From contig DATKKT010000022.1 in assembly GCA_035542795.1 (NCBI GenBank), forward strand, positions 3,679-67,678: a stretch of 64,000 nt of DNA, given 5' to 3'. Within the stretch, counting starts at the first letter, position 1. Each line of letters starts with the position of its first letter. Positions 28,441 through 59,821 of the stretch are shown piece by piece. Below the pieces are notes generated by a model. The model did not search any database, was not told the DNA's origin, and saw only the letters and a list, made by a program, of their open reading frames with translations. The DNA is from Burkholderiales bacterium (GTDB lineage Bacteria > Pseudomonadota > Gammaproteobacteria > Burkholderiales > SG8-39). A program made the position numbers and the translations under genes.

Positions 28441-28522
28441 CGCTTCTTCACCTTGCGCGAGAGGGCGGTTCGCGTAGAATGCCCCCCGCCCGTCCGCAAT
28501 TGGCGACATAAAAAGGAAACTG

Positions 28523-29698
28523 ATGCTTTTCAACGGCTTGCTGGATCTTCCGTGGTGGGGTTTGGTGCTCGTGGCCCTGGGCCTGACGCACGTCACCATC
28601 GCGTCGGTGACGATCTACCTGCATCGCAACCAGGCGCACCGCGCCCTCGACCTGCATCCGGCGGTCGCGCACTTCTTCCGCTTCTGGCTGTGGCTGACCA
28701 CCGGCATGGTGACCAAGGAGTGGACCGCGATCCACCGCAAGCACCACGCCAAATGCGAGACCGCCGAGGATCCGCACAGCCCGCAGGTCCATGGCATCAA
28801 CAAGGTGCTCTGGCTGGGTGTGATCCTGTACGTCAAGGAGTCGCACCATCCGGAGACCATGGAGCGCTACGGCCATGGCACGCCGGACGACTGGGTCGAG
28901 CGCAACCTCTATGCGCGCTATTCGGTGCAAGGCCTGTTCCTGATGGGTGCGCTGGACATCGCGCTGTTCGGCCTGCTGCCGGGCGGTCTGATCCTGCTCA
29001 CGCAAATCGTCTGGATCCCGTTCTGGGCCGCCGGCGTCATCAACGGCGTGGGCCACTTCTGGGGCTACCGCAACTGGGACGTGCCGGCGCCGGACGCGAG
29101 CCGCAACATCTCGCCGATCGGCATGCTGATCGGCGGCGAGGAGCTGCACAACAACCATCACGCCTTCCCGGCCTCGGCGAAGTTCTCGCTGAAGTGGTAC
29201 GAGTTCGACCTCGGCTGGCAGTACATCCGCGCGCTCGAGGCGCTCGGCCTCGCCACCGTGAAGAAGGTCGCGCCGACGCCGCGCTTCGCCGCCCCCAAGC
29301 CGGTCTGCGACGAGCAGACTCTGGAAGCGGTGATCGCCAACCGCTACGACGTGCTCGCCCGCTACGCCAAGTCGCTCAGCCACACCTACCACCAGGAGCT
29401 CGAGCGCCTCGGCCGCTGGTCGAAGGAGGCCGAGGCGCTGAAGCCCGCCAAGCGCTACATCGCGCGCCTGCAGCGGCTCAGCGAGACGGAGCGCGCGCGG
29501 CTCGCCGAGGCGCTGAAGAATTCCAAGGCGCTCGCCACGGCGGTCGCCATGCGGCACGAGCTCGCCGAGCTGTGGGCGCGCTCGAGCGCCTCGCGCGTGC
29601 AGCTCGTCGGCCAGCTGCAGGACTGGTGCCATCGCGCGGAGACGAGCGGGGTGGTGCCGCTCGCGGAGTTCAGCCAGCGGCTGCGCCGCTACGCCTGA
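28523..29698 (+). CDS. Membrane acyl-CoA/acyl-lipid (delta-9-type) fatty acid desaturase
   Basis: Histidine boxes HRNQAH, HRKHH and HNNHH, with a C-terminal helical extension. Confidence 0.85.
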   Translation: MLFNGLLDLPWWGLVLVALGLTHVTIASVTIYLHRNQAHRALDLHPAVAHFFRFWLWLTTGMVTKEWTAIHRKHHAKCETAEDPHSPQVHGINKVLWLGVILYVKESHHPETMERYGHGTPDDWVERNLYARYSVQGLFLMGALDIALFGLLPGGLILLTQIVWIPFWAAGVINGVGHFWGYRNWDVPAPDASRNISPIGMLIGGEELHNNHHAFPASAKFSLKWYEFDLGWQYIRALEALGLATVKKVAPTPRFAAPKPVCDEQTLEAVIANRYDVLARYAKSLSHTYHQELERLGRWSKEAEALKPAKRYIARLQRLSETERARLAEALKNSKALATAVAMRHELAELWARSSASRVQLVGQLQDWCHRAETSGVVPLAEFSQRLRRYA

Positions 29699-41666: not shown

Positions 41667-42104
41667 ATGCGTAGCGTTCTCCTTCTCCTCGCCTGGCTGA
41701 CCGCGGCGTGCGCGTGGGCGCAGCAGCCGCCGTTGCCAGCGATCGACCTGACCGTCGGCATGTACCGCATCCACGCCGAAGTCGCCAACGACATGAACTC
41801 GCGCATGCAGGGCCTCATGTTCCGCAAGTCGATGCCGCAGAGCGCCGGCATGCTCTTCGTCTTCGAGGACAGCGCGGCGCAATGCATGTGGATGAAGAAC
41901 ACGCTGATCCCGCTGTCGGTCGCCTTCGTCGACGCGGCGGGAACGATCGTCAATATCGCCGACATGCAGCCGCAGACCGAGGACTCGCACTGTGCCGAGC
42001 GTCCCGTTCGCTACGCGCTCGAGATGAACAAAGGCTGGTTCGCGCAGCGCGGCATCAAGCCCGGCGCGAAGCTCGGCGGCCTGGAGAAGTTCGCGCCGCG
42101 CTAG
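41667..42104 (+). CDS. DUF192 domain-containing periplasmic protein
   Basis: Signal peptide plus MQGLMFRKSMPQSAGMLFVF...MWMKNTLIPLSVAFVD, a DUF192 hallmark. Confidence 0.8.
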   Translation: MRSVLLLLAWLTAACAWAQQPPLPAIDLTVGMYRIHAEVANDMNSRMQGLMFRKSMPQSAGMLFVFEDSAAQCMWMKNTLIPLSVAFVDAAGTIVNIADMQPQTEDSHCAERPVRYALEMNKGWFAQRGIKPGAKLGGLEKFAPR

Positions 42105-42712
42105 GCGAGGTTGCGGTACAGCAGTTGGAGCCCCAGCCCGACGCTGAAGGTGGCGATCGCTGCCTGCAGGACGCGGTTCAGCACGGCGAGTCGCGCGGCT
42201 GTCAGCCGCAGCGGCAACGCGATCGCTACGGAGAGCGTCGCCATGCCGGCGATGGAGCCGAGTCCGAACATCAGAATGTAGATCCCGCCCACCAGCGGCG
42301 AGCCCACCTGCTCCAGCGCCAGCAGGACCAGTGCCGCCGAGCCCGCGAGGCCGTGCATCATGCCGACGGCAATCGCACGCATCGGCATACGCGGCGCGCT
42401 GACCTGCGCGCTGCGCTCGCGCAGCAGCCGACGCAGCAGATCGGCGCCTAGCGCCACCAGCATCGCGCCGACTGTGGCTTCCAGCACCGCCGCAGTGCGC
42501 GTATCGATCACCGCTCCCAGCAGCAGCACTGCGCCGCCAAACGCGAGCAGTGTCAGCGCGTGGCCGGCGCCCCAGGCGACGCCTTGCCGCACTGTGCCGC
42601 GCAGCGTGCCGTCGCGTGCCGCCAGCGCCGCTACGGCAGCGAGGTGATCGGCCTCGAGGGCGTGCAGCATTCCGAATGCGGTGCCAAACAGGAGAACGGC
42701 AGGCAAACCCAT
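42101..42712 (-). CDS. Putative Ni/Co transporter-like multi-pass membrane protein (HX4DH motif)
   Basis: 203 aa and hydrophobic. HALEADH at aa 17-23 recalls the NiCoT/NicO signature, with a second MHGLAGS segment. Divergent from the TonB receptor across a NikR-box spacer. Family assignment is tentative. Confidence 0.5.
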   Translation of the reverse strand: MGLPAVLLFGTAFGMLHALEADHLAAVAALAARDGTLRGTVRQGVAWGAGHALTLLAFGGAVLLLGAVIDTRTAAVLEATVGAMLVALGADLLRRLLRERSAQVSAPRMPMRAIAVGMMHGLAGSAALVLLALEQVGSPLVGGIYILMFGLGSIAGMATLSVAIALPLRLTAARLAVLNRVLQAAIATFSVGLGLQLLYRNLA

Positions 42713-42740
42713 GTATGATGATTATGCACGTTTTGCATAC
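42713..42740. promoter_or_regulatory. Candidate NikR operator
   Basis: GTATGA-N16-GCATAC matches the E. coli nik operator GTATGA-N16-TCATAC at 11 of 12 positions. An extra GCATAC lies at 42742..42747. The site is inside the 55-bp divergent spacer. Confidence 0.6.
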
Positions 42741-42767
42741 CGCATACCATAAGCGAGCAAGGGGAGC

Positions 42768-44861
42768 ATGGGGAGCGCTAGGGTCCGCGTGGTCGCGACA
42801 ACGGTCGCGCTTGCGCTGGCGGGGATGGCGACGCCGAAGGCCGGTGCGCAGAGCACGAGCGCGCAACCGGCGCTCGACGCGATCGTCGTCGAAGGACATC
42901 GCGACAATGGCGTCGGCACGTCGGACGCCGCGAGCGAAGGCACGGCCACGCGCAAGCTCATCGAGGACCGGCCCACGCTGAGGCCGGGTGAGGTGCTCGA
43001 GTTCGTCTCCGGCATGATCGTTTCGCAGCACAGCGGCGATGGCAAGGCCAATCAGTACTACCTGCGCGGCTTCAACCTCGACCACGGCACCGACTTCGCG
43101 ACCTGGGTTGCGGGCATGCCCGTGAACATGCGCTCGAACGCGCACGGGCAGGGCTATACGGATCTCAATTTCATGATTCCCGAGCTGATCTCGCGCATCG
43201 ACTACCGCAAGGGGCCGTATTTCGCAGATGACGGCGACTTTTCCAGCACGGGTTCGGCGCGCATCGGTTACCTCGACCGCTTCGAGCGGCCGCTCGCCTC
43301 GCTCTCGCTCGGGCAGAACGGCTACCAGCGGCTGCTCGGGGCCGGCTCGATGGTCGCTGGCGCGGGCACGCTGCTGGGCGCGGTCGAACTCAACCACTAC
43401 GACGGGCCTTGGGAGGTGCCCGAGCACTTCCGCAAGCTGAACGCGGTGCTGCGCTGGTCCCTCGCGAGCGGCGACAACCGCGTCGGCCTGACCGCGATGG
43501 GCTACGACGGGCGCTGGACCTCGACCGACCAGATTCCGAGGCGCGCCGTGGGCGAGGGGCTGATCGGCCGATTCGGCTCGCTCGACCCGACCGACGGCGG
43601 CAAGAGCTCGCGCGCCAGCCTGTCGCTAGACTGGTCGCGCGCCTACGCCGACGGCGCGCTGCAGCTGAACGCCTATGCGGTGCGCTCCCGGCTCGACCTG
43701 TTCAGCAACTTCACCTTCTTCCTCGCGCATCCCTTCGACCTGGGCGATCCGGTCGACGGCGACCAGTTCAAGCAGTCGGAGAAGCGCAGCATGATGGGCC
43801 TGAACGTCGCGCGTACCTGGACCGGCAAATTGGGCGATGCTGCGATGGTGAACAAGCTGGGACTGCAGTTGCGATATGACCACGTCAATCCGCTCGGCCT
43901 GCAGGAAACAGTGCAGCGCGAGGTTGTCGATACGGTGCGTCTGGACGATGTGAAAGAGGGCAGCGCGGCCCTGTTTGCCGAGAACTCGGTGCAATGGACG
44001 GCCTGGCTGCGCAGCGTGCTGGGCCTGCGTTTCGACCGCTACAGCTTCGACGTGGCGAGCGACAACCCGGCGAACTCGGGGAAGGTTTCGGCGCACATCA
44101 CCTCGCCCAAGTTGTCGTTCATCCTGGGCCCCTGGTCGAAGACGGAGTTCTTCGTCAACTACGGCGAGGGCTTCCACAGCAACGACGCGCGCGGCACCAC
44201 GACGCACGTGAGTCCGTCGAGCGGCATGGCAGTCGATCCCGTCACGCCGCTGGTGAAGGCGCGCGGGGGCGAGCTAGGGGCGCGCACGGAGATCATTCCC
44301 GGCCTGCAGATCTCGCTTGCGCTGTGGCGGCTGCGGCTTGCCTCGGAGCTCGTCTTCAGCGGCGATGCCGGCGATACGGAGGCGAGCCGCCCGAGCCGTC
44401 GTCAGGGTGTGGAGTGGACGAACCAGTGGATCTTCAGCCGCTACCTGCTGCTCGACCTCAACCTCGCGGCCTCCAAGGCGCGCTTCACCGAGGACGACCC
44501 GGCCGGCAACTACATCCCGGGCTCGATCGACAAGGTCGCCTCGCTGGGGCTCACGTTGACCGACTGGCAAGGCTGGTTCGGTGCGCTGCAGTGGCGCTAT
44601 TTCGGCCCGCGCCCGCTCATCGAGGACAACTCGCAGCGCTCGGCCGCCACCTCACTCGCCTACCTGCGCGTCGGCCGGCAACTCGATGAACGTGTGCGGC
44701 TGAGCCTGGACGTCTTCAATCTCTTCAACCGCAGGGCGAGCGACATCGACTATTTCTACACGTCGCGCCTGCGAGGCGAGCCGGCTGCGGGCGCGGACGA
44801 CATCCATTTCCACCCCGTCGAGTCGCGCACGTTGCGGCTCGCGCTGCAAGTGCGCTTCTGA
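42768..44861 (+). CDS. TonB-dependent outer-membrane receptor
   Basis: Signal peptide, plug domain (LDAIVVEGHR...YYLRGFNLDHGTDF), a long beta-barrel, and a C-terminal ...LALQVRF. Confidence 0.85.
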   Translation: MGSARVRVVATTVALALAGMATPKAGAQSTSAQPALDAIVVEGHRDNGVGTSDAASEGTATRKLIEDRPTLRPGEVLEFVSGMIVSQHSGDGKANQYYLRGFNLDHGTDFATWVAGMPVNMRSNAHGQGYTDLNFMIPELISRIDYRKGPYFADDGDFSSTGSARIGYLDRFERPLASLSLGQNGYQRLLGAGSMVAGAGTLLGAVELNHYDGPWEVPEHFRKLNAVLRWSLASGDNRVGLTAMGYDGRWTSTDQIPRRAVGEGLIGRFGSLDPTDGGKSSRASLSLDWSRAYADGALQLNAYAVRSRLDLFSNFTFFLAHPFDLGDPVDGDQFKQSEKRSMMGLNVARTWTGKLGDAAMVNKLGLQLRYDHVNPLGLQETVQREVVDTVRLDDVKEGSAALFAENSVQWTAWLRSVLGLRFDRYSFDVASDNPANSGKVSAHITSPKLSFILGPWSKTEFFVNYGEGFHSNDARGTTTHVSPSSGMAVDPVTPLVKARGGELGARTEIIPGLQISLALWRLRLASELVFSGDAGDTEASRPSRRQGVEWTNQWIFSRYLLLDLNLAASKARFTEDDPAGNYIPGSIDKVASLGLTLTDWQGWFGALQWRYFGPRPLIEDNSQRSAATSLAYLRVGRQLDERVRLSLDVFNLFNRRASDIDYFYTSRLRGEPAAGADDIHFHPVESRTLRLALQVRF

Positions 44862-44862
44862 G

Positions 44863-45324
44863 CTAGCTGCGAGGCTTGAGGTGGTGGTGGGCGGCGCCGT
44901 GCGCGTGCCGGTGCGGCGCGGTCGGCTCGACGCTCACCGGGTGCAACCGGCCGTGCCGCACGCCGCGGATCGCGGTGAGCGCATCAGCGAATCGGCGCAC
45001 CTCTTCGGTATGTCCCCGCAGCATCACCGTCTCCATGCAGTTGTCGTGGTCAATGTGCATGTGCATCGCCGACACCACGAGGTCGTGATGCTCGTGTTGC
45101 AGGCCGGCGATGCGCTCGACCAGCTGCCGCTGGTGGTGCTTATAGACATAAGTCAGCGCCGCGACGCAATGCTCGGACTCTCCGGCAGCGGCGCGGTCCT
45201 CCTCGATGCGCGCGCGCAGGATGTCGCGCAGCGCCTCCGAGCGGCTCGCGTAGCCGAGCCGTCCCACCAGCCGGTCGAAATCGACCGCGAGCCTGTCGTC
45301 GAGCGATATCGTGAAACGTTCCAC
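44863..45324 (-). CDS. nikR: Nickel-responsive regulator NikR
   Basis: Ribbon-helix-helix MERFTISLDDRL...YASRSEALRDILR. Ni-binding His/Cys cluster (HCVAALTYVYKHH...HMHIDHDNC) and a His-rich tail. GTG start with AGGAGG. Confidence 0.9.
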   Translation of the reverse strand: MERFTISLDDRLAVDFDRLVGRLGYASRSEALRDILRARIEEDRAAAGESEHCVAALTYVYKHHQRQLVERIAGLQHEHHDLVVSAMHMHIDHDNCMETVMLRGHTEEVRRFADALTAIRGVRHGRLHPVSVEPTAPHRHAHGAAHHHLKPRS

Positions 45325-45340: not shown

Positions 45341-45369
45341 GCAACGGGGCCCGCGAAGGGCCCCGTTGC
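45341..45369 (-). terminator. GC-rich hairpin after the PuuD-like gene, upstream of nikR
   Basis: GCAACGGGGCCC-GCGAA-GGGCCCCGTTGC, a 12-bp stem. On the minus strand it is followed by ATTTCAGGAGG, with only a weak U-tract. Confidence 0.5.
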
Positions 45370-45393: not shown

Positions 45394-45978
45394 TTAGAAG
45401 CCGCCGTGCGACTGCGCCGCCATGCAGTACAGCATCGGGATGGACAGCATGGTGTTGATGCGCGAGGTCATCCCGGCCATCTTCGCAGCCGCGGCCTTGG
45501 CGGTCGCGTCCACGGTGACGATTCCGAGCACCTTCTTCTGGTTCGGCCAGATGATGAACCAGACGTTGAACGCCATGATGAGGCCCAGCCACATGCCGAA
45601 GCCGATCGCGCGCGCGCCCGGCGCGAGCGAGAGCGCCGGCGCGAGGAAGCCGAGCATCCAGGCGAGCAGCAGGCCGGTGACCACGGTCGACGCCGCCGCC
45701 CAGCGGAACCAGAACAGCGCGCGCGGCGCGATCACCTTGCTCACGGCGGGCTTCTGCTCGTCCGGGATCTGCGGCATCGACGGCGTCTGCACGAAGTTGA
45801 AGTACCAGAGCAGGCCGATCCACATGACACCGGAGAGGATGTGCAGCCAGCGCATGAAGAACGTCCAATAGGCGTGCCCGCCCATCATGCCGAAGGTGTT
45901 GGCGACCAGCATCATCGCGACGAGGATGACGATGCCGGCGATGATCGTGCGGCCGAGAGACTGGAAGAAAGCGCCCAT
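45394..45978 (-). CDS. Urate hydroxylase PuuD N-terminal-domain-like membrane protein (no cytochrome c domain)
   Basis: 194 aa. HILSGVMWIGLLWYFNFVQ pattern. AAGGAGG SD before the ATG at 45978 (codon 41 of the listed ORF). Confidence 0.55.
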   Translation of the reverse strand: MGAFFQSLGRTIIAGIVILVAMMLVANTFGMMGGHAYWTFFMRWLHILSGVMWIGLLWYFNFVQTPSMPQIPDEQKPAVSKVIAPRALFWFRWAAASTVVTGLLLAWMLGFLAPALSLAPGARAIGFGMWLGLIMAFNVWFIIWPNQKKVLGIVTVDATAKAAAAKMAGMTSRINTMLSIPMLYCMAAQSHGGF

Positions 45979-46021
45979 CAGTTCCTCCTTCTTGTGTTCT
46001 GTGCGGAGGGCGAAAAGTCTA

Positions 46022-47086
46022 TCACTCCCGGCGCAGGCCTGCCGCCGCGGCGCGCGCGGGCGCCGCCTCCAGGCCGCGGCTGTACGCCGACATCGCATAG
46101 CAAAACAGGAAATAGACGAGCGAGGCGATCAGGTAGGCCTCGACGCCGAAGCCGGACCAGGCCGGATCCTGCAGAGAGACCTTGATGGTGCTGAGGAAAT
46201 CAAACAGGCCAATGATCAGCACCAGCGAGGTGTCCTTGAAGAAGCCGATGAAGGTGTTCACGAGCGGCGCGATCGACAGGCGCAGCGCCTGCGGCAGCAC
46301 CACGTGCAGCATCGCCTGCCGGTAGGACAGGCCGAGCGCCTCGGCCGCCTCGACCTGGGGGCGCGGCACCGCCTGCAGGCCGCCTCGCACCACCTCGGCG
46401 AGATAGGCGGCCGCGAACAGCACCAGCGCCAGCTGCGCGCGCAGCAGCTTGTCGATCGTCGCGCCCGCAGGCAGGAACAGCGGCAGCATCACCGAGGCCA
46501 TGAACAGCACCGAAATCAGCGGCACGCCGCGGACGAGCTCGATGGTGCCGACGCAGGCGTAGCGCAGCACCGGCAGCCGCGAACGGCGCCCGAGCGCGAG
46601 CAGGATCGAGAGCGGAAACGCGAACGCGATGCCGAAGCTCGCGAGCAGCAGCGTCAGGATCAGCCCGCCCCAGCGCTCGTTCTCCACATAGGGCAGGCCG
46701 AGGACGCCGCCCCACATCAGCGCGCCGATGAGCGCGAGGCCGGCGAGCCAGACCGCCGCGAGCCACCAATGCCAGCATCTTCTGAATGACGAGCAAAACC
46801 AGAGAAGGATCAGCAGCACGCTCGCCGCCGCCGGCCGCCAGTGCTGCTCGAACGGGTAGGTGCCGAACAGGATGAAACGGTGCTTCTGGCCGATGAACGC
46901 CCAGCAGGCGCCGTGCGCCTCCCGGCAGGCGCGCGGGTCGGACGCCTGCCAGACCGCCTGCGCGAACGCCCAGTCGAGAAACGGCGGCAGCCAGCGCGCG
47001 GCGAGCCAAAGGATCGCCAGTGTCGCGAGCGCGCTCGGCCAGCTGGAGAACAGGCTGCGCCGGATCCAGTGCAGGGGACCGCTCAC
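46022..47086 (-). CDS. Polar amino acid ABC transporter permease (AapM-like)
   Basis: GVPLISVLFMASVMLP and the EAA loop EAAEALGLSYRQAMLHVVLPQAL. GTG start overlaps the upstream stop (GTGA). Confidence 0.8.
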   Translation of the reverse strand: MSGPLHWIRRSLFSSWPSALATLAILWLAARWLPPFLDWAFAQAVWQASDPRACREAHGACWAFIGQKHRFILFGTYPFEQHWRPAAASVLLILLWFCSSFRRCWHWWLAAVWLAGLALIGALMWGGVLGLPYVENERWGGLILTLLLASFGIAFAFPLSILLALGRRSRLPVLRYACVGTIELVRGVPLISVLFMASVMLPLFLPAGATIDKLLRAQLALVLFAAAYLAEVVRGGLQAVPRPQVEAAEALGLSYRQAMLHVVLPQALRLSIAPLVNTFIGFFKDTSLVLIIGLFDFLSTIKVSLQDPAWSGFGVEAYLIASLVYFLFCYAMSAYSRGLEAAPARAAAAGLRRE

Positions 47087-54063: not shown

Positions 54064-55296
54064 ATGCAGACCCAGCTCGCCGACTTCATCCGCGATACGC
54101 CCGAGGGACGCGAGGCGGACGCGATCCTGCGCAAGTGCGTGCATTGCGGCTTCTGCACCGCGACCTGCCCGACCTACCAGCTGCTCGGCGACGAGCTCGA
54201 CGGCCCGCGCGGGCGCATCTACCTGATCAAGCAGCTCCTCGAGGGCGCGGCGCCGACCGTGAAGACGCAGCTGCACCTCGACCGCTGCCTCAGCTGCCGC
54301 TCCTGCGAGAGCACCTGCCCTTCGGGCGTGCAGTACGGGCGCCTCGCGGACATCGGGCGCGGCATCGTCGAGCAGAAAGTCGGCCGCGGCCTGCTGGCGC
54401 GATTGCAGAGAACCCTGCTGGGCGCGGTCATTCCGAACACCGCCTTGTTCTCGTTCCTGCTCTCGATCGGGCGGTTCTTCCGTTTCGCTGTTCCGGGAGG
54501 ACTCAAAGAGAAGATTCCCGTGAAAATCCCTGCGGGCGACTGGCCTCCTGCACGCCATGCCAGAAGGATGCTCGTGCTCGCGGGCTGCGCGCAGCCGGCG
54601 ATCGCGCCGCGCATCAATGCCGCCGCGGCGCGCGTGCTCGATCGGGCCGGCATCTCGCTCGTGGAAGCGTCCGGCGCGGGCTGCTGCGGGGCGGTGCGCT
54701 TTCACCTGAACGAGCAGGCGGCGGGCCGCAACGACATGCGAGCGCTCATCGATGCCTGGTGGCCGGCCGTCGAGCGCGGTGGAATCGAGGCGATCGCGAT
54801 CACCGCGAGCGGCTGCGGCAGCTTCATCAAGGAGTACGCGCACCACCTCGCGCAGGATCCCGCCTACCGCGAAAAGGCCGAGCGCATCGTCGGCTTGACG
54901 AAAGATCTCTCGGAAATCGTTCCGGAGGAGTGCATTCAGCAGGCCGATGCCTCCTCGCGGGTCGCCTTCCAGTCGCCTTGCTCGCTGCAGCACGGCCAGC
55001 AGATCCGCGGCAAAGTCGAAGGCCTGCTGGCGAAGGCCGGCTACGAGCTGACGCCCGTGCCCGATGCGCACCTGTGCTGCGGCTCGGCCGGCACCTACTC
55101 GATCCTGCAGCCCGAGCTCTCTGGCCGCTTGAAGGAGCGCAAGCTGGCCGCGCTCTCGGCGGGCGAGCCGCAGGCGATCGCCACCGCCAACATCGGTTGC
55201 CTCGCGCACCTGCAGGCAGGCGCGCGCGTGCCCGTGCGGCATTGGATCGAGCTGCTCGACGAGGCGGCCGCGACGGCGCAAAATTCCGGGCCATGA
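54064..55296 (+). CDS. glcF: Glycolate oxidase iron-sulfur subunit GlcF
   Basis: Two ferredoxin-type clusters, CVHCGFCTATCP and CLSCRSCESTCP, plus CCG domains (CCGSAG). Confidence 0.9.
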   Translation: MQTQLADFIRDTPEGREADAILRKCVHCGFCTATCPTYQLLGDELDGPRGRIYLIKQLLEGAAPTVKTQLHLDRCLSCRSCESTCPSGVQYGRLADIGRGIVEQKVGRGLLARLQRTLLGAVIPNTALFSFLLSIGRFFRFAVPGGLKEKIPVKIPAGDWPPARHARRMLVLAGCAQPAIAPRINAAAARVLDRAGISLVEASGAGCCGAVRFHLNEQAAGRNDMRALIDAWWPAVERGGIEAIAITASGCGSFIKEYAHHLAQDPAYREKAERIVGLTKDLSEIVPEECIQQADASSRVAFQSPCSLQHGQQIRGKVEGLLAKAGYELTPVPDAHLCCGSAGTYSILQPELSGRLKERKLAALSAGEPQAIATANIGCLAHLQAGARVPVRHWIELLDEAAATAQNSGP

Positions 55297-57392
55297 ACGC
55301 TCCCCGCTCCGCGCCGGGCCTTGCCGACGCCGATGCCGCCGTGAAGGTGGTGCGCGCGGCCTGCCCGCACGACTGCCCGGACACCTGCGCGATGCTGGTG
55401 ACGGTGAAGGACGGCGTCGCGGTGAAGGTGCAGGGCGATCCGCTGCACCCGTTCACCGACGGCACGCTGTGCACCAAGGTGAGCCACTACGCCGAGCGCA
55501 CCTACGCGCCGGACCGGCTGCTGCACCCGATGCGGCGCACGGGTCCGAAGGGCAGCGGCGAGTTCCGGCGCATCAGCTGGGACGAGGCGCTCGAGGAGAT
55601 CGCCGCGCGCCTGAAGGCGCTCGCGGCCGAAGATCCGCAGACCATCCTGCCGCTCAGCTACGCGGGCACCATGGGCATGCTGCAGTACATGTCGATGGAC
55701 CGGCGCTTCTTCCACAAGCTGGGCGCCTCGCAGCTGGAGCGCACGCTATGCTCGTCGGCGGGCAAGGCCGGCATCAAGGCGACGCTGGGCGGCAGCTACG
55801 GCATGGATCCCGAGCACTACCCGGATGCGAAGCTGATCCTGATCTGGGGCTCCAACCCGATCGCCTCCAACCTGCACTTCTGGTCGCGCGCGCAGGAGGC
55901 CAAGCGCCGCGGCGCGAAGCTCGTCGCGATCGATCCCTACCGCAGCCTGACCGCGGAGAAGTGCACCCAGCACATCGCGCCGCTGCCGGGCACCGACGGC
56001 GCGCTCGCGCTCGGCATGATGCACGTCCTGATCACGGAGAACCTGATCGACGAGGACTATGTTGCGCGCTTCACGCTGGGTTTTGATCTTTTGAAGGAAA
56101 AAATCAGAATCCATACCCCGGAGTGGGCGGCGCAGATCTGCGGTCTCGATGTCCAGGAGATCGTCCAGCTCGCGCGCGACTACGGCACGGCGAAGCCCGC
56201 GGCGATCCGTCTCAACTACGGCATGCAGCGGCATGCGGGCGGCGGCATGGCCGCGCGCACGATCGCCTGCCTGCCCGCGCTGGTGGGCGCCTGGCGCGAC
56301 CCGGCGGGCGGCCTGCTGCTCACGACCGCCGACAACTACCACTTCGACCATGCTGCGCTCGAGCGCCCGGACCTCATGCCGACGCCGCGTCCGCGCGTGA
56401 TCAACCACTCGCGGCTGGGCGAAGCACTCACCTCGGCCGAGCCGCCGGTGCGCGCCGTGATCGTCTACAACAACAATCCGGTCGCCGTCTGCCCGGATTC
56501 CAACCGGGTGCTCAAGGGCTTCGCGCGCGAGGACATGTTCTGCGTGGTGATGGATTCCTTTCTCACCGACACCGCGGACTACGCCGACATCGTCCTGCCG
56601 GCCACCACGCAGCTCGAGCATGCCGACATCCACAAGTCCTACGGGCACCTGTACGTGGTGGCGAACAACGCGGCGATCGCGCCCGTGGGCGAGTCGCTGC
56701 CGAACGCGGAGGTGTTCCGGCGCCTCGCCGCGCGCATGGGTTTTACAGAGCCGTGCTTTCGCGACAGCGACGACGACCTGGCGCGTCAGGCGATCGGCTC
56801 GGGGCACCCCAACCTCGCCGGCATCGACTGGGAGACGCTCCGGCAGAACGGCTGGCAGCGCCTCGCGCTGCCGAAGACCTTCGCGCCGTTCGCGAAGGGC
56901 GGCTTCCACACGCCCTCGGGCAAGTGCGAGTTCTACAGCGAGTCGCTCGCGAAGCATGGTTTCGACCCGCTGCCCGGCTACACGCCGCCCGCCGAGCTGC
57001 CCTCGAGCAATCCGGAGCTCGCGCGCAAGTACCCGCTCAATTTCCTCTCGCCGCCGGTTCGCAATTTCCTGAATTCCTCGTTCGCGAACCTGAAGCGCTT
57101 CCGCGACGCCGAAGGCGAGCCTGCGCTGGAGCTGCACTCCGCGGACGCCGCGCCGCGCGGCATCCGCGACGGCGACCGCGTGCGCGTATTCAACGACCGC
57201 GGCAGCGTCGAGCTGCGCGCGCGAGTGAACGACAGGCCGCGCCGCGGCGTCGTGGTGGCGCCCTCAGTCTGGTGGCGCAAGTTCACGCCCGACCGGCGCA
57301 ACGCGAACGATCTCACCTCGCAGCGCACCGCCGACCTGGGCGGTGCGGCCACGTTCTACGACTGCCTGGTCGAGGTCGAGCGCGCCGCGTAG
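55293..57392 (+). CDS. Cytoplasmic molybdopterin (MopB/DMSO reductase superfamily) oxidoreductase, substrate unknown
   Basis: N-terminal Fe-S cysteine group CPHDCPDTC...C. Typical MopB blocks (LILIWGSNP, KLVAIDPYRS). C-terminal barrel (RIRDGDRVRVFNDRG). No Tat signal. ATGA overlap with the glcF stop. Confidence 0.8.
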   Translation: MNAPRSAPGLADADAAVKVVRAACPHDCPDTCAMLVTVKDGVAVKVQGDPLHPFTDGTLCTKVSHYAERTYAPDRLLHPMRRTGPKGSGEFRRISWDEALEEIAARLKALAAEDPQTILPLSYAGTMGMLQYMSMDRRFFHKLGASQLERTLCSSAGKAGIKATLGGSYGMDPEHYPDAKLILIWGSNPIASNLHFWSRAQEAKRRGAKLVAIDPYRSLTAEKCTQHIAPLPGTDGALALGMMHVLITENLIDEDYVARFTLGFDLLKEKIRIHTPEWAAQICGLDVQEIVQLARDYGTAKPAAIRLNYGMQRHAGGGMAARTIACLPALVGAWRDPAGGLLLTTADNYHFDHAALERPDLMPTPRPRVINHSRLGEALTSAEPPVRAVIVYNNNPVAVCPDSNRVLKGFAREDMFCVVMDSFLTDTADYADIVLPATTQLEHADIHKSYGHLYVVANNAAIAPVGESLPNAEVFRRLAARMGFTEPCFRDSDDDLARQAIGSGHPNLAGIDWETLRQNGWQRLALPKTFAPFAKGGFHTPSGKCEFYSESLAKHGFDPLPGYTPPAELPSSNPELARKYPLNFLSPPVRNFLNSSFANLKRFRDAEGEPALELHSADAAPRGIRDGDRVRVFNDRGSVELRARVNDRPRRGVVVAPSVWWRKFTPDRRNANDLTSQRTADLGGAATFYDCLVEVERAA

Positions 57393-57454
57393 GCGGCGCG
57401 CGTCGGCCCCTGCGCGCCGCCCGTCGGCGCGACTGCAAGAAAAGGTCAGTCGCG
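57392..57454 (+). terminator. Two GC-rich hairpins after the molybdoenzyme gene (possible terminator or attenuator)
   Basis: GGCGGCGCGC-N10-GCGCGCCGCC (57392..57421) and CGCGACTG-N11-CAGTCGCG (57428..57454). Neither has a U-tract. Confidence 0.3.
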
Positions 57455-57502
57455 TGCGACAGTTCCAGCGGGCCGTGCCGACTGGGGGATAGCTTGGCGC
57501 CG

Positions 57503-59821
57503 ATGAACGACGAACGCCTGGTGACGGCGCGCATCGCCGCGCTGTTCAGCCTCGCCTGGCCGGCCTATTTCGCCTCGGTCGCGCTCGCGTGCCTGCTGCT
57601 GCTCGTGCTCTGGGGGGAATTCCCGGCGCCGCTGCTGCTCGGCTGGCTGGGCGCCATGATCGCGCTCACGGCCGTGCGCGTCGGCCTGCAGGGCGCGTAT
57701 CGCCGCGCGCCCGCCGCGCTCTCGGCGCGCGCCTGGGAGCGGTTCTTCGTGCTCGGGGCGTTCGGTGCCGGGGCGATCTGGACCTTCGCGCCCGCGGTGT
57801 TCCTGCCCGGGGCCGGGCCGCTGCTGCAGCTGCCGGTGGTGTTCGTGGTCGGCGGCACGATCATCGGCGCCGCGGGCGTGTACGCGGCGAGCCCGACCGC
57901 GTACTACGCGTTCAGCGCCCTGCCTCTGGTCGCGGTCGTGGCGCAGCTGCTCGCGCAGGGCGGCGGGACCTATCCGCTTCTCGCGCTCATGGTCGCGGTG
58001 TTCGGCGCGGCGATGATTTCCGTGTATCGCGGCATCCACGGCAACGTGCTCAGCGCGCTGCGCACGCGCATCGAGAACGAGGAGCTGCTCGCGCGCTTGG
58101 CGCGGAACGAGGCCAAGCTGCGCGAGGCCGTGGACGAGGCGGTCGGCAAGGTGACCGAGCTCGAGCAGGCGCAAGCGGCCTACCAGGAGCTCGCCGCCGA
58201 GGAGAAGCTGGTGTTCGACACGCTGCCGGTGGGCGTCGCGTTCTTCTCCGAGCGCGTCATCCTGCGCTGCAACCGCCGGCTGGAGCAGATGCTGGGCTAC
58301 GAGCCGGGCGAGCTCGCCGGACGCTCCTCGCGCGTGCTGTATCCGTCGGACGCGCTCTGGAACGAGGCGGGCGAGCGCTACAAGCTGCTGGCCGGCGGCC
58401 AGGTGCTCGAGGGCGAATTCAAGCTGCAGCGCAAGGACGGCAGCCAGCTCTGGTGCCACTCGGTCGGGCGCTCGATGAACCCGCACGAGCCGCGCGCGTC
58501 CACGATCGTCACCTACAGCGACACCAGCGCGCGCCACGCCGCCGAGCGCGCGCTGCGCAAGAGCGAGGCGATGTACCGCAACCTCGTCGAGACCTCGAAC
58601 GACCTCATCTGGGCGGTGGACGCGGAGGGGCGCTGGACCTACCTCAGCCCGGCCGCGGCGCGCCGCATCTACGGCTGCCAGCCCGGCGAGCTGCTCGGCC
58701 GCGCGTTCAGCGAGATGCTCGCGCCCGAGGTGGGCGAGCGCGACCTGGCGGTGTTCCAGCGCATCCTCGCCGGCGAGTCGGTGTTCGACTATCAGACGCG
58801 CCACCTGCGCCGCGACGGCGCGCACGTCGACCTGTCGTTCAACGCGGTGCCGATGCGCGACGCACGCGGCGCGGTGACCGGCGCGACCGGAACCGCGCGC
58901 GACGTCACCGCCGAGAAGGTCGCCGCCGCCGCGCAGTACGAGAACGTCGAGAAGCTGCGCCTCGCGGTGGACGCGGCCGAGCTCACGTACTGGGAATGGG
59001 AGCGCGACACCGATCAGCTGCACTGGGGCCGCGACCCCTCGACGCTGGTCGGCGACGCGGGCGGGCGCAATACGCGCTGGTCCGAGTACCTGCAGATCGT
59101 GCACCCGGAGGACCGCGAGCGGTACCTCGCGACGGTGAACGCCGCCTGGGAGCAGGCCGGCGCGTGCTCCAACGAGTACCGCGTGATCCGCGGCGACGGC
59201 CGCGTCGCCTGGCTGTCCTCTCACGGCAAGACGCTGGCCGACCCCACGGGGCGCGTCTACCGCATGATCGGCGTGTCGCAGGACATCACCGACCGCAAGC
59301 GCCAGGAGGAGGAGGCGCGCTTCCTCGCCTACCACGACACGCTCACCGGGCTGCCGAACCGCCGCCTGCTCGACGACCGGCTGCGCCAGGCGGTATTCCT
59401 CGCGCAGCGCCGCGACACGCGCGTCGCGGTGATGGTGATCGACCTGGACCGCTTCAAGCAGGTCAACGACGCCCTCGGCCACCGCGCGGGCGACGCCGTG
59501 CTGCGCGAAGCCTCGCACCGCATCGCCGGCTGTGTGCGCAAGGCCGACACGCTCGCGCGCCACGGCGGCGACGAGTTCGTCGTCGTGATCCCCGACCTGC
59601 GCCAGGACGGCGACAGCCAGGTGGTGGCCGAGAAGATCCTGCGCGCGCTGGAGCCGCCGTTCCGCGTCGACGGGCACGACTTCGCGATCGGCGCGAGCAT
59701 CGGCATCTCGCTCTATCCGACCGACGCGGGCGACGGCGAAGCCGTGCTGCGCAACGCCGACGTCGCCATGTACCGCGCCAAGCAGCTCGGCCGCAACAAC
59801 TACCGCTTCTACGGCCGCTAG
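57503..59821 (+). CDS. Membrane sensor diguanylate cyclase (multi-TM N-domain, three PAS domains, GGDEF)
   Basis: N-terminal ~190 aa hydrophobic. Three PAS-like repeats. GGDEF active site RHGGDEFVVV with I-site RKAD five residues upstream. ATG at codon 461 of the artefactual 1232-aa ORF. Confidence 0.85.
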   Translation: MNDERLVTARIAALFSLAWPAYFASVALACLLLLVLWGEFPAPLLLGWLGAMIALTAVRVGLQGAYRRAPAALSARAWERFFVLGAFGAGAIWTFAPAVFLPGAGPLLQLPVVFVVGGTIIGAAGVYAASPTAYYAFSALPLVAVVAQLLAQGGGTYPLLALMVAVFGAAMISVYRGIHGNVLSALRTRIENEELLARLARNEAKLREAVDEAVGKVTELEQAQAAYQELAAEEKLVFDTLPVGVAFFSERVILRCNRRLEQMLGYEPGELAGRSSRVLYPSDALWNEAGERYKLLAGGQVLEGEFKLQRKDGSQLWCHSVGRSMNPHEPRASTIVTYSDTSARHAAERALRKSEAMYRNLVETSNDLIWAVDAEGRWTYLSPAAARRIYGCQPGELLGRAFSEMLAPEVGERDLAVFQRILAGESVFDYQTRHLRRDGAHVDLSFNAVPMRDARGAVTGATGTARDVTAEKVAAAAQYENVEKLRLAVDAAELTYWEWERDTDQLHWGRDPSTLVGDAGGRNTRWSEYLQIVHPEDRERYLATVNAAWEQAGACSNEYRVIRGDGRVAWLSSHGKTLADPTGRVYRMIGVSQDITDRKRQEEEARFLAYHDTLTGLPNRRLLDDRLRQAVFLAQRRDTRVAVMVIDLDRFKQVNDALGHRAGDAVLREASHRIAGCVRKADTLARHGGDEFVVVIPDLRQDGDSQVVAEKILRALEPPFRVDGHDFAIGASIGISLYPTDAGDGEAVLRNADVAMYRAKQLGRNNYRFYGR

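Follow-up and report, generated by a model that had tools for sequence, protein, structure and literature searches.

Does a gene for the nickel regulator NikR, lying beside two divergently transcribed membrane-protein genes, mark a nickel uptake route across both membranes? The question is raised by a 64,000-nucleotide (nt) stretch of a Burkholderiales genome (GenBank contig DATKKT010000022.1; hereafter the window), in which nikR adjoins the gene of a TonB-dependent receptor and the receptor gene diverges from that of a small membrane protein, here called the permease. An earlier note on this DNA had proposed such a two-membrane route, and the results support it: the operator-like dyad between the divergent genes is conserved, the regulator is canonical, and receptor and permease belong to families linked with nickel. 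We consider it likely that the locus is a compact NikR-controlled nickel-acquisition unit. Whole-window Pfam annotation found no nikABCDE genes within the 64 kb.

On re-reading, the coordinates that the earlier note had given for the three open reading frames (ORFs), the HALEADH motif of the permease and the 55-bp spacer between the divergent genes (42713-42767) all proved correct. The features of the locus, in window coordinates, are as follows.

42101..42712, minus strand: permease ORF, 203 amino acids (aa); predicted UreH-like (NicO superfamily) six-helix inner-membrane protein with HALEADH at aa 17-23
42713..42740, no strand assigned: predicted NikR operator GTATGA-N16-GCATAC, identical at 11 of 12 positions to the Escherichia coli site and common to both divergent genes
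42721..42726, minus strand: -10-like hexamer CATAAT (minus-strand reading) inside the operator, 8 nt 5' of the permease ATG
42735..42748, plus strand: 7-bp tandem duplication GCATACC-GCATACC (repeat family D1), the source of a 'second GCATAC'; not conserved
42760..42766, plus strand: Shine-Dalgarno sequence AGGGGAG of the receptor gene, kept in orthologous loci L082 and L085
42768..44861, plus strand: TonB-dependent receptor gene, 697 aa, with Plug and beta-barrel domains
44863..45324, minus strand: nikR, 153 aa, with RHH_1 and NikR_C domains
45341..45369, minus strand: perfect 12-bp GC-rich hairpin between a Urate_ox_N-like gene (45394-46098) and nikR

The receptor gene and nikR are convergent, with stop codons 1 nt apart (44859-44865), and a terminator scan of the locus detected none at this junction.

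NikR and its predicted operator

The regulator reads as an orthodox NikR. It matches the NCBIfam equivalog model for NikR (NF002815) at 181.3 bits against a cut-off of 83, as well as Pfam PF01402 (30.1 bits, cut-off 20.5) and PF08753 (105.3 bits, cut-off 22), and aligns to E. coli NikR (1q5v) with an E value of 1e-32. All four high-affinity nickel ligands (His76, His87, His89 and Cys95 in E. coli numbering) are kept. Among Arg3, Thr5 and Thr7, which we take to be the beta-strand DNA-contact residues of E. coli NikR, the first two are kept in the same alignment and the third is conservatively changed to Ser.

NikR represses nickel import genes, and the published consensus of its E. coli operator (PMC7055735) is the same as the site that we read from the MG1655 genome, GTATGA-CGAATACTTAAAATCG-TCATAC, which ends 37 nt upstream of nikA. 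With this site confirmed as the reference, the dyad that the earlier note had described as an 11 of 12 match is present as claimed, with exactly the same 16-nt spacing. At up to two mismatches to GTATGA-N16-TCATAC it is the sole match in the window, where 0.25 would be expected; at up to one mismatch the expectation falls to about 0.016 per 64 kb (mean of 300 shuffles, 0.007). The dyad directly adjoins the permease start codon and occupies positions -55 to -28 relative to the receptor ATG, and nikR has no dyad of its own in the window arrangement. A second GCATAC, listed in the earlier note after the dyad, does exist at 42742-42747, but it is the second copy in the tandem duplication GCATACC. 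Neither the 97%-identical locus L085 nor L081 or L082 has this repeat, so it is lineage-specific and not a second half-site.

Orthologous loci (L numbers) were gathered by exact-protein look-ups and a metagenome scan. Conservation of the dyad in orthologous spacers, on which the earlier note had made its reading depend, is borne out: it is kept in L081, L082 and L084-L086 and tracks the presence of nikR. Wherever the permease diverges from the receptor, the dyad stands in the same place, with 16-nt spacing and 0-1 nt from the permease ATG, at permease identities to the window of 100% (L084, dyad identical), 97% (L085/L086), 72% (L082) and 67% (L081). The half-sites are fixed and the inner 16 nt vary; in L085/L086 the dyad is a perfect palindrome, GTATGC-N16-GCATAC, and in L082 the operator ends 11 nt before the receptor ATG. 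The dyad also occurs in other gene arrangements around the receptor.

L108: nikR-EamA divergent from the receptor; dyad GTATGA-N16-TCTTAC
L110/L111: nikR divergent from the receptor; dyad GTATGA-N16-TCTTAC
L116/L117: hydrogenase-Fic-nikR-receptor; dyad GTATGA-N16-TCATAC, zero mismatches
L119 (Methyloversatilis): hydrogenase-Fic-nikR-receptor; dyad GTATGC-N16-TCATAC, one mismatch

Hence, a dyad precedes the receptor in all seven lineages with an adjacent nikR (window/L084, L085/L086, L081, L108, L110/L111, L116/L117 and L119), and in none of the seven loci without one (L083, L087, L107, L109, L112, L118 and the plasmid pHG1) was a dyad found within three or two mismatches, depending on the scan. 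In L108 and L110 one operator serves nikR and the receptor together, which would make nikR autoregulated. Among the 80 best genome loci of the permease family, whose permeases are 40-58% identical to that of the window, neither a receptor nor nikR lies nearby. Since these distant loci lack the arrangement and closer orthologues have it, the combination of permease, receptor and nikR is restricted to the clade of the window.

The permease and receptor families

Judged by its relatives, the permease is a short, loop-less member of the UreH-like branch of the NicO superfamily. When 24 relatives were aligned, 23 matched NicO and 10 matched DsbD_2 (PF13386), which we take to be the UreH-like transmembrane domain of InterPro; three gave weak matches to HupE_UreJ_2 and five to the NCBIfam model of RcnA. 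The family counts 803 cluster representatives at 50% identity (E value of 1e-30 or better). The exact sequence is deposited at NCBI as HVP08202.1, 'urease accessory protein [Burkholderiales bacterium]', and sources name the relatives either 'urease accessory protein' (NCBI and UniRef) or 'RcnA' (many of those labelled by JGI). The earlier note had spoken of a poorly characterised family, which is right in that the family is little studied; it is not nameless, given the existing name UreH and the NCBI label. UreH permeases are an established though thinly studied family of nickel transporters (PMC2667541), described as having six helices, with a histidine-rich cytoplasmic loop that joins helices III and IV (PMC4284471).

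The AlphaFold2 model of the permease has six helices (mean predicted local distance difference test score 71.9, moderate confidence) at residues 3-19/22-34, 37-66, 71-98, 110-136 and 139-202, with the final span forming a helical hairpin, and the hydropathy profile is consistent with this layout. An internal 3+3 repeat is weakly supported (z 2.4). Because a Foldseek search of the model against the PDB gave no match below an E value of 0.1 (CcdA ranked 23rd) and a profile search of PDB sequences found nothing, no fold-level assignment is made. Most relatives are 233-254 aa long and fit the UreH description in both helix number and His-rich loop, and those at 50-60% identity carry His-rich loops of 20-50 residues; the window protein sits in a small clade of 203-205 aa in which the loop is lost.

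Two neighbouring families were tried and rejected. The signatures of the nickel/cobalt transporter family NiCoT are (R/K)HAxDADH(I/L), FxxGHS(T/S)(V/I)V, LGx(D/E)T(A/S)(T/S)E and GMxxxD(T/S)xD (PMC7689651, Table 2); the permease approximates the first (LHALEADHL, including the motif H17-A-L-E-A-D-H23), has a reduced form of the second (WGAGHALTLL) and lacks the third and fourth. It is also smaller than classical NiCoT permeases, as the earlier note had remarked, with 203 aa and six helices against some 330-380 aa and eight helices. HupE/UreJ identity fails on the HPxxGxDH motif of helix I, in place of which stands HALEADH.

The genomic contexts of relatives point to nickel. About 20 of the 80 best loci adjoin hypD and hypE (in L054, the example checked, directly downstream of hypE), and hypF, hypC, hypB, maturation protease and hydrogenase large-subunit genes occur in smaller subsets. 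The permease gene of the window itself, in a housekeeping region, has the receptor gene and nikR as its neighbours and not nickel-enzyme genes.

Some relatives are fusions in which a UreH-like module follows another NicO-type module (P0302, P0314, P0363, P0368, P0379 and P0380, 730-784 aa; P0317, 613 aa), which hints that the small proteins may work as dimers. A search of a plasmid collection with the permease returned two weak partial matches only, on sphingomonad plasmids (43% identity over 61% of the permease length; NZ_CP009295.1 77007-77471 and NC_008036.1 22511-22975). Both are annotated 'high frequency lysogenization protein HflD', probably a misannotation.

The receptor has Plug (PF07715, 45.3 bits) and barrel (PF00593, 86.4 bits) domains, an N-terminal signal peptide, a TonB-box-like ALDAIVVEG and a C terminus ...QVRF that ends in Phe. 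Its family is very large in Betaproteobacteria, with more than 8000 proteins at an E value of 1e-10 or better. Homologues adjoin nikR and the genes for the small and large subunits of [NiFe]-hydrogenase in L116 and L119; a HupE_UreJ_2 gene lies near the homologues in L107-L109 and immediately upstream in L112. On the megaplasmid pHG1 of Cupriavidus necator, a receptor 53% identical to that of the window (L115, 26821-28839) lies in the hydrogenase region 4.4 kb downstream of hoxN, with no nikR or NikR dyad nearby. Among the receptor neighbourhoods examined, the sole exception is L118 (Duganella), which has no nickel-related neighbour. With a NikR site before it and nickel genes in the neighbourhoods of its family, the window receptor is predicted to be a nickel-specific TonB-dependent transporter.

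Two further gene groupings were seen around receptor homologues. In L116 (83-7127) and L119 (1-7064), one run of genes encodes the two NiFe-hydrogenase subunits, small and large, a Fic-domain protein, NikR and the receptor, with the Fic gene directly upstream of nikR in both. Near other receptor orthologues lies a gene pair encoding a secreted protein of about 396 aa without a Pfam match and a HupE_UreJ_2 protein of 374-391 aa (L107 2744-5055; L108 1237-3554; L109 634-2930; L112 2405-4838). This pair, absent from the window by tblastn, may be a further nickel uptake module.

Proposed mechanism and alternatives

In the mechanism that we propose, the receptor would bring nickel, either free or in a small chelate, through the outer membrane, and the UreH-like permease would carry it across the inner membrane by way of the membrane-embedded H-x4-D-H motif and the conserved His51 and His120. 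The single operator in the spacer, 27 nt from the receptor ATG, should overlap both promoters. With enough Ni(II) in the cytoplasm, Ni-NikR would bind the dyad and turn both genes off together; when nickel is scarce, receptor and permease would both be expressed. Having no operator of its own, nikR would probably be expressed independently of nickel. We infer NikR binding and repression at the dyad, and likewise import rather than export and nickel rather than cobalt as the substrate; import is favoured because repression is shared with an uptake receptor and because of the hydrogenase context of the permease family.

The geometry of the spacer is consistent with this mechanism. With the operator adjoining the permease ATG and ending close to that of the receptor, both genes would start their transcription in or beside it. 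A strong Shine-Dalgarno sequence precedes the receptor gene; for the permease, none follows the CATAAT hexamer, which has A/T-rich equivalents in L081, L082 and L085. This lack, together with the position of CATAAT just before the ATG, suggests that the permease mRNA could be leaderless or near-leaderless.

Several observations weigh against the reading of the locus as a NikR-controlled nickel-acquisition unit. The window comes from an uncultured Burkholderiales metagenome-assembled genome, and the locus is known from sequence alone. The whole-window Pfam annotation found no nickel enzyme genes and no tonB or exbBD genes in the 64 kb. Classification by hidden Markov model search, which the earlier note had suggested, places the relatives in NicO as described above and not the permease itself, which scores 17.9 bits against Pfam NicO, below the cut-off of 27.7, and has no match in NCBIfam. 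Its loop at aa 96-112 (LLRERSAQVSAPRMPMR) contains no His, and thus the His-rich loop typical of UreH is missing. A scan of the spacer for a consensus sigma-70 promoter detected nothing, which makes the suggestion of a leaderless mRNA a weak one, and the overlap of operator and promoters would follow from geometry only, with the promoter geometry judged by eye. In L083 and L087, close orthologues of the permease (74% identity) occur where nikR, receptor and dyad are all missing, so NikR regulation is not a requirement for the permease. Moreover, the permease family resembles the exporter RcnA more than the importer HoxN: its profile aligns with RcnA over the full length (hhalign 94.9%, E 4.6e-8) and with HoxN over the first two helices only (hhalign 71%, 63 columns).

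Because of this last resemblance, the direction of transport is not settled by homology alone. If the permease were an RcnA-like Ni/Co exporter, NikR would have to act as an activator, unless the permease had come to be paired with the receptor by chance. The full-length alignment with E. coli RcnA, which includes the His-rich loop of the relatives, speaks for an exporter, as do the name 'RcnA' given to many relatives by JGI and the five weak matches to the RcnA model. However, a repressor site common with an uptake receptor most simply means repression at high nickel, which would be perverse for an exporter, and no RcnR- or CsoR-type regulator lies nearby. Relatives adjoin hypD/hypE in hydrogenase maturation clusters, where nickel is needed, and the metal motif HAxEADH(L) resembles the HAxDADH(I/L) of NiCoT importers and not the HGLEPGH of RcnA. 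We therefore regard export as very unlikely.

The substrate, rather than the direction, could also differ: cobalt or a nickel-organic chelate might be taken up in place of free Ni(II), with NikR reporting a related signal. The NiCoT, UreH and HupE families do include cobalt transporters (PMC2667541; PMC7689651), TonB-dependent receptors usually take chelates, and in L108/L109 the receptor is paired with an EamA/DMT transporter, of a family typical of organic substrates. Such a substrate is nevertheless unlikely here, given a NikR nickel site that is complete and family contexts made up of hydrogenase genes and not B12 genes; Rfam and tRNA scans of the whole window gave no matches, hence no B12 riboswitch. 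A chance palindrome, or a site for another regulator such as Fur, would be extremely improbable. Fur commonly controls TonB-dependent receptors, and the A/T-rich inner part of the spacer contains ATGATGATTAT, which is loosely Fur-box-like; the best Fur-box match is only 11/19, equalled in 128 of 1,000 shuffles. Conservation coincides exactly with the NikR half-sites, spaced 16 nt apart, and the sequence between them varies; the dyad also follows nikR across loci (seven of seven with it, zero of seven without).

The chromosomal slot and comparison with known systems

In relatives, the backbone around the locus consists of isocitrate dehydrogenase, a small gene, a DUF192 gene, a variable slot, the Urate_ox_N-like gene and an ATP-binding cassette (ABC) transporter. 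The slot holds different combinations of genes.

Permease, receptor and nikR: the window and L081 (the same module on shorter contigs in L082 and L084-L086)
Permease alone: L083 and L087
EamA-nikR and receptor: L108
EamA and receptor: L109
nikR and receptor: L110/L111
Receptor alone: L107

An EamA/DMT transporter takes the position of the UreH-like permease in L108 (4463-5919, in an operon with nikR and behind the dyad divergent from the receptor) and in L109 (3879-4910), the latter with neither nikR nor the dyad. Taken together, slot and regulation allow a wider reading that we hold to be unlikely: the DUF192/Urate_ox_N-like slot would be a nickel-acquisition islet with a conserved receptor, a possible leaderless mRNA and an antisense feed-forward switch. 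The inner-membrane partners of the receptor may then be interchangeable, namely the loop-less UreH-like permease, an EamA/DMT transporter, nikR alone, or none with the HupE_UreJ_2 pair nearby. Should EamA and UreH-like partners be functionally equivalent, what the receptor delivers may be a nickel chelate (nickelophore), and the periplasmic fate of that chelate would decide which permease is needed. With read-through, the derepressed receptor transcript would run antisense into nikR across the 1-nt junction and make a feed-forward switch; and the operator adjoining the permease ATG would, if this reading is true, give a leaderless mRNA.

On the other side of nikR, the hairpin at 45341-45369 reads GCAACGGGGCCC-uucgc-GGGCCCCGUUGC and is followed by AUUU and then by AGGAGG, the Shine-Dalgarno sequence of nikR. 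Within the window it occurs only once, and the 81-nt folded segment that contains it has a folding energy of -37.7 kcal/mol (z-score -2.9). Possibly it acts as a terminator or insulator and keeps nikR apart from the Urate_ox_N-like gene upstream.

The remainder of the window is a housekeeping segment with glyA, nrdR, ribD, hrpA, fmt, rsmB, coaBC, dut, clpSA and two isocitrate dehydrogenases, and with amino-acid ABC transporter genes downstream. A single frame at 28478-29698 (plus strand) encodes a fatty-acid desaturase domain at aa 26-253 and, after it, part of an ISL3-type DDE transposase at aa 285-405, which suggests an insertion-sequence remnant fused to, or truncating, a desaturase gene. 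Two long overlapping frames at 54135-57392 and 56123-59821 (plus strand) encode a molybdopterin oxidoreductase and a PAS-GGDEF protein. No ORF in that stretch passes the likely-gene filter by codon-position GC, which asks for a third-position GC (GC3) above 0.80 and a second-position GC (GC2) below 0.58; GC3 is 0.78-0.80 there.

To our knowledge, TonB-dependent nickel uptake outside Helicobacter is still a matter of prediction only, and very few members of the UreH family have been tested. As a minimal self-contained example, with a regulator, one operator and two transporters, and backed by a clear signal from comparative genomics, the locus is suited to testing that prediction, and it could show whether the His-rich loop of UreH is dispensable. 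The general understanding of nickel homeostasis is unchanged by it.

Among known systems, E. coli NikR/nikABCDE shares with the locus the regulator family, the nickel ligands, Arg3/Thr5 and the operator architecture. The transporters differ, with an ABC importer in E. coli and a TonB-dependent receptor plus a secondary permease here; here, moreover, one operator serves two divergent genes, and nikR, instead of closing the regulated operon, faces its target in convergent orientation. The exporter E. coli RcnA is similar to the permease family over the full-length profile and in its six-helix layout with a central loop, but it carries HGLEPGH and is under RcnR control, induced by excess metal, whereas the permease has a NikR site in common with an uptake receptor. 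The importers HoxN and NixA have a nearly identical first motif ((R/K)HAxDADH(I/L) against HALEADHL), with a GH motif in the helix after it. They have eight helices and about 350 aa in contrast to six helices and 203 aa here, and three of the four NiCoT motifs are absent from the permease.

Closer to the permease is the UreH family (UreH of Bacillus sp. TB-90 and of Rhodopseudomonas palustris, and cyanobacterial SodT), which, compared by description, has the same six helices and a motif of the HX4DH type in helix I; the name 'urease accessory protein' is also common to both, and relatives of the permease co-localise with NiFe-hydrogenase genes. The window clade differs in lacking the His-rich loop between helices III and IV and in adjoining nikR and the receptor, not a nickel enzyme.

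The overall design resembles that of Helicobacter pylori, where NikR-repressed TonB-dependent nickel uptake across the outer membrane (FrpB4/FecA3) is combined with a secondary inner-membrane permease, NixA (PMC3856676, PMC7055735). However, the H. pylori NikR operator is different and AT-rich, the genes are scattered, and NixA is an eight-helix NiCoT. Nickel TonB-dependent receptors have been predicted in Proteobacteria, including Daro_3944 (Dechloromonas), Rgel01002199 (Rubrivivax) and Bll6948; passages of PMC11247825, PMC3400609 and PMC7142613 credit these to Rodionov et al. 2006 (J Bacteriol 188:317) and Schauer et al. 2008, and tables in these later papers still mark the receptors as 'predicted'. 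The Daro_3944 type resembles the window receptor, by description only, as a betaproteobacterial receptor preceded by a NikR site, and differs in that the receptor here is divergent from a UreH-like permease. The nickel receptor prediction of Rodionov et al. 2006 reportedly rested on upstream NikR sites. NikR-regulated TonB-dependent receptors (Daro_3944, Bll6948) and UreH permeases have thus been described before, and the arrangement has been predicted by comparative genomics since 2006. The additions made here are modest: a receptor and a UreH-like permease divergent on one operator, a loop-less UreH clade, an operator adjoining a start codon and a variable islet.

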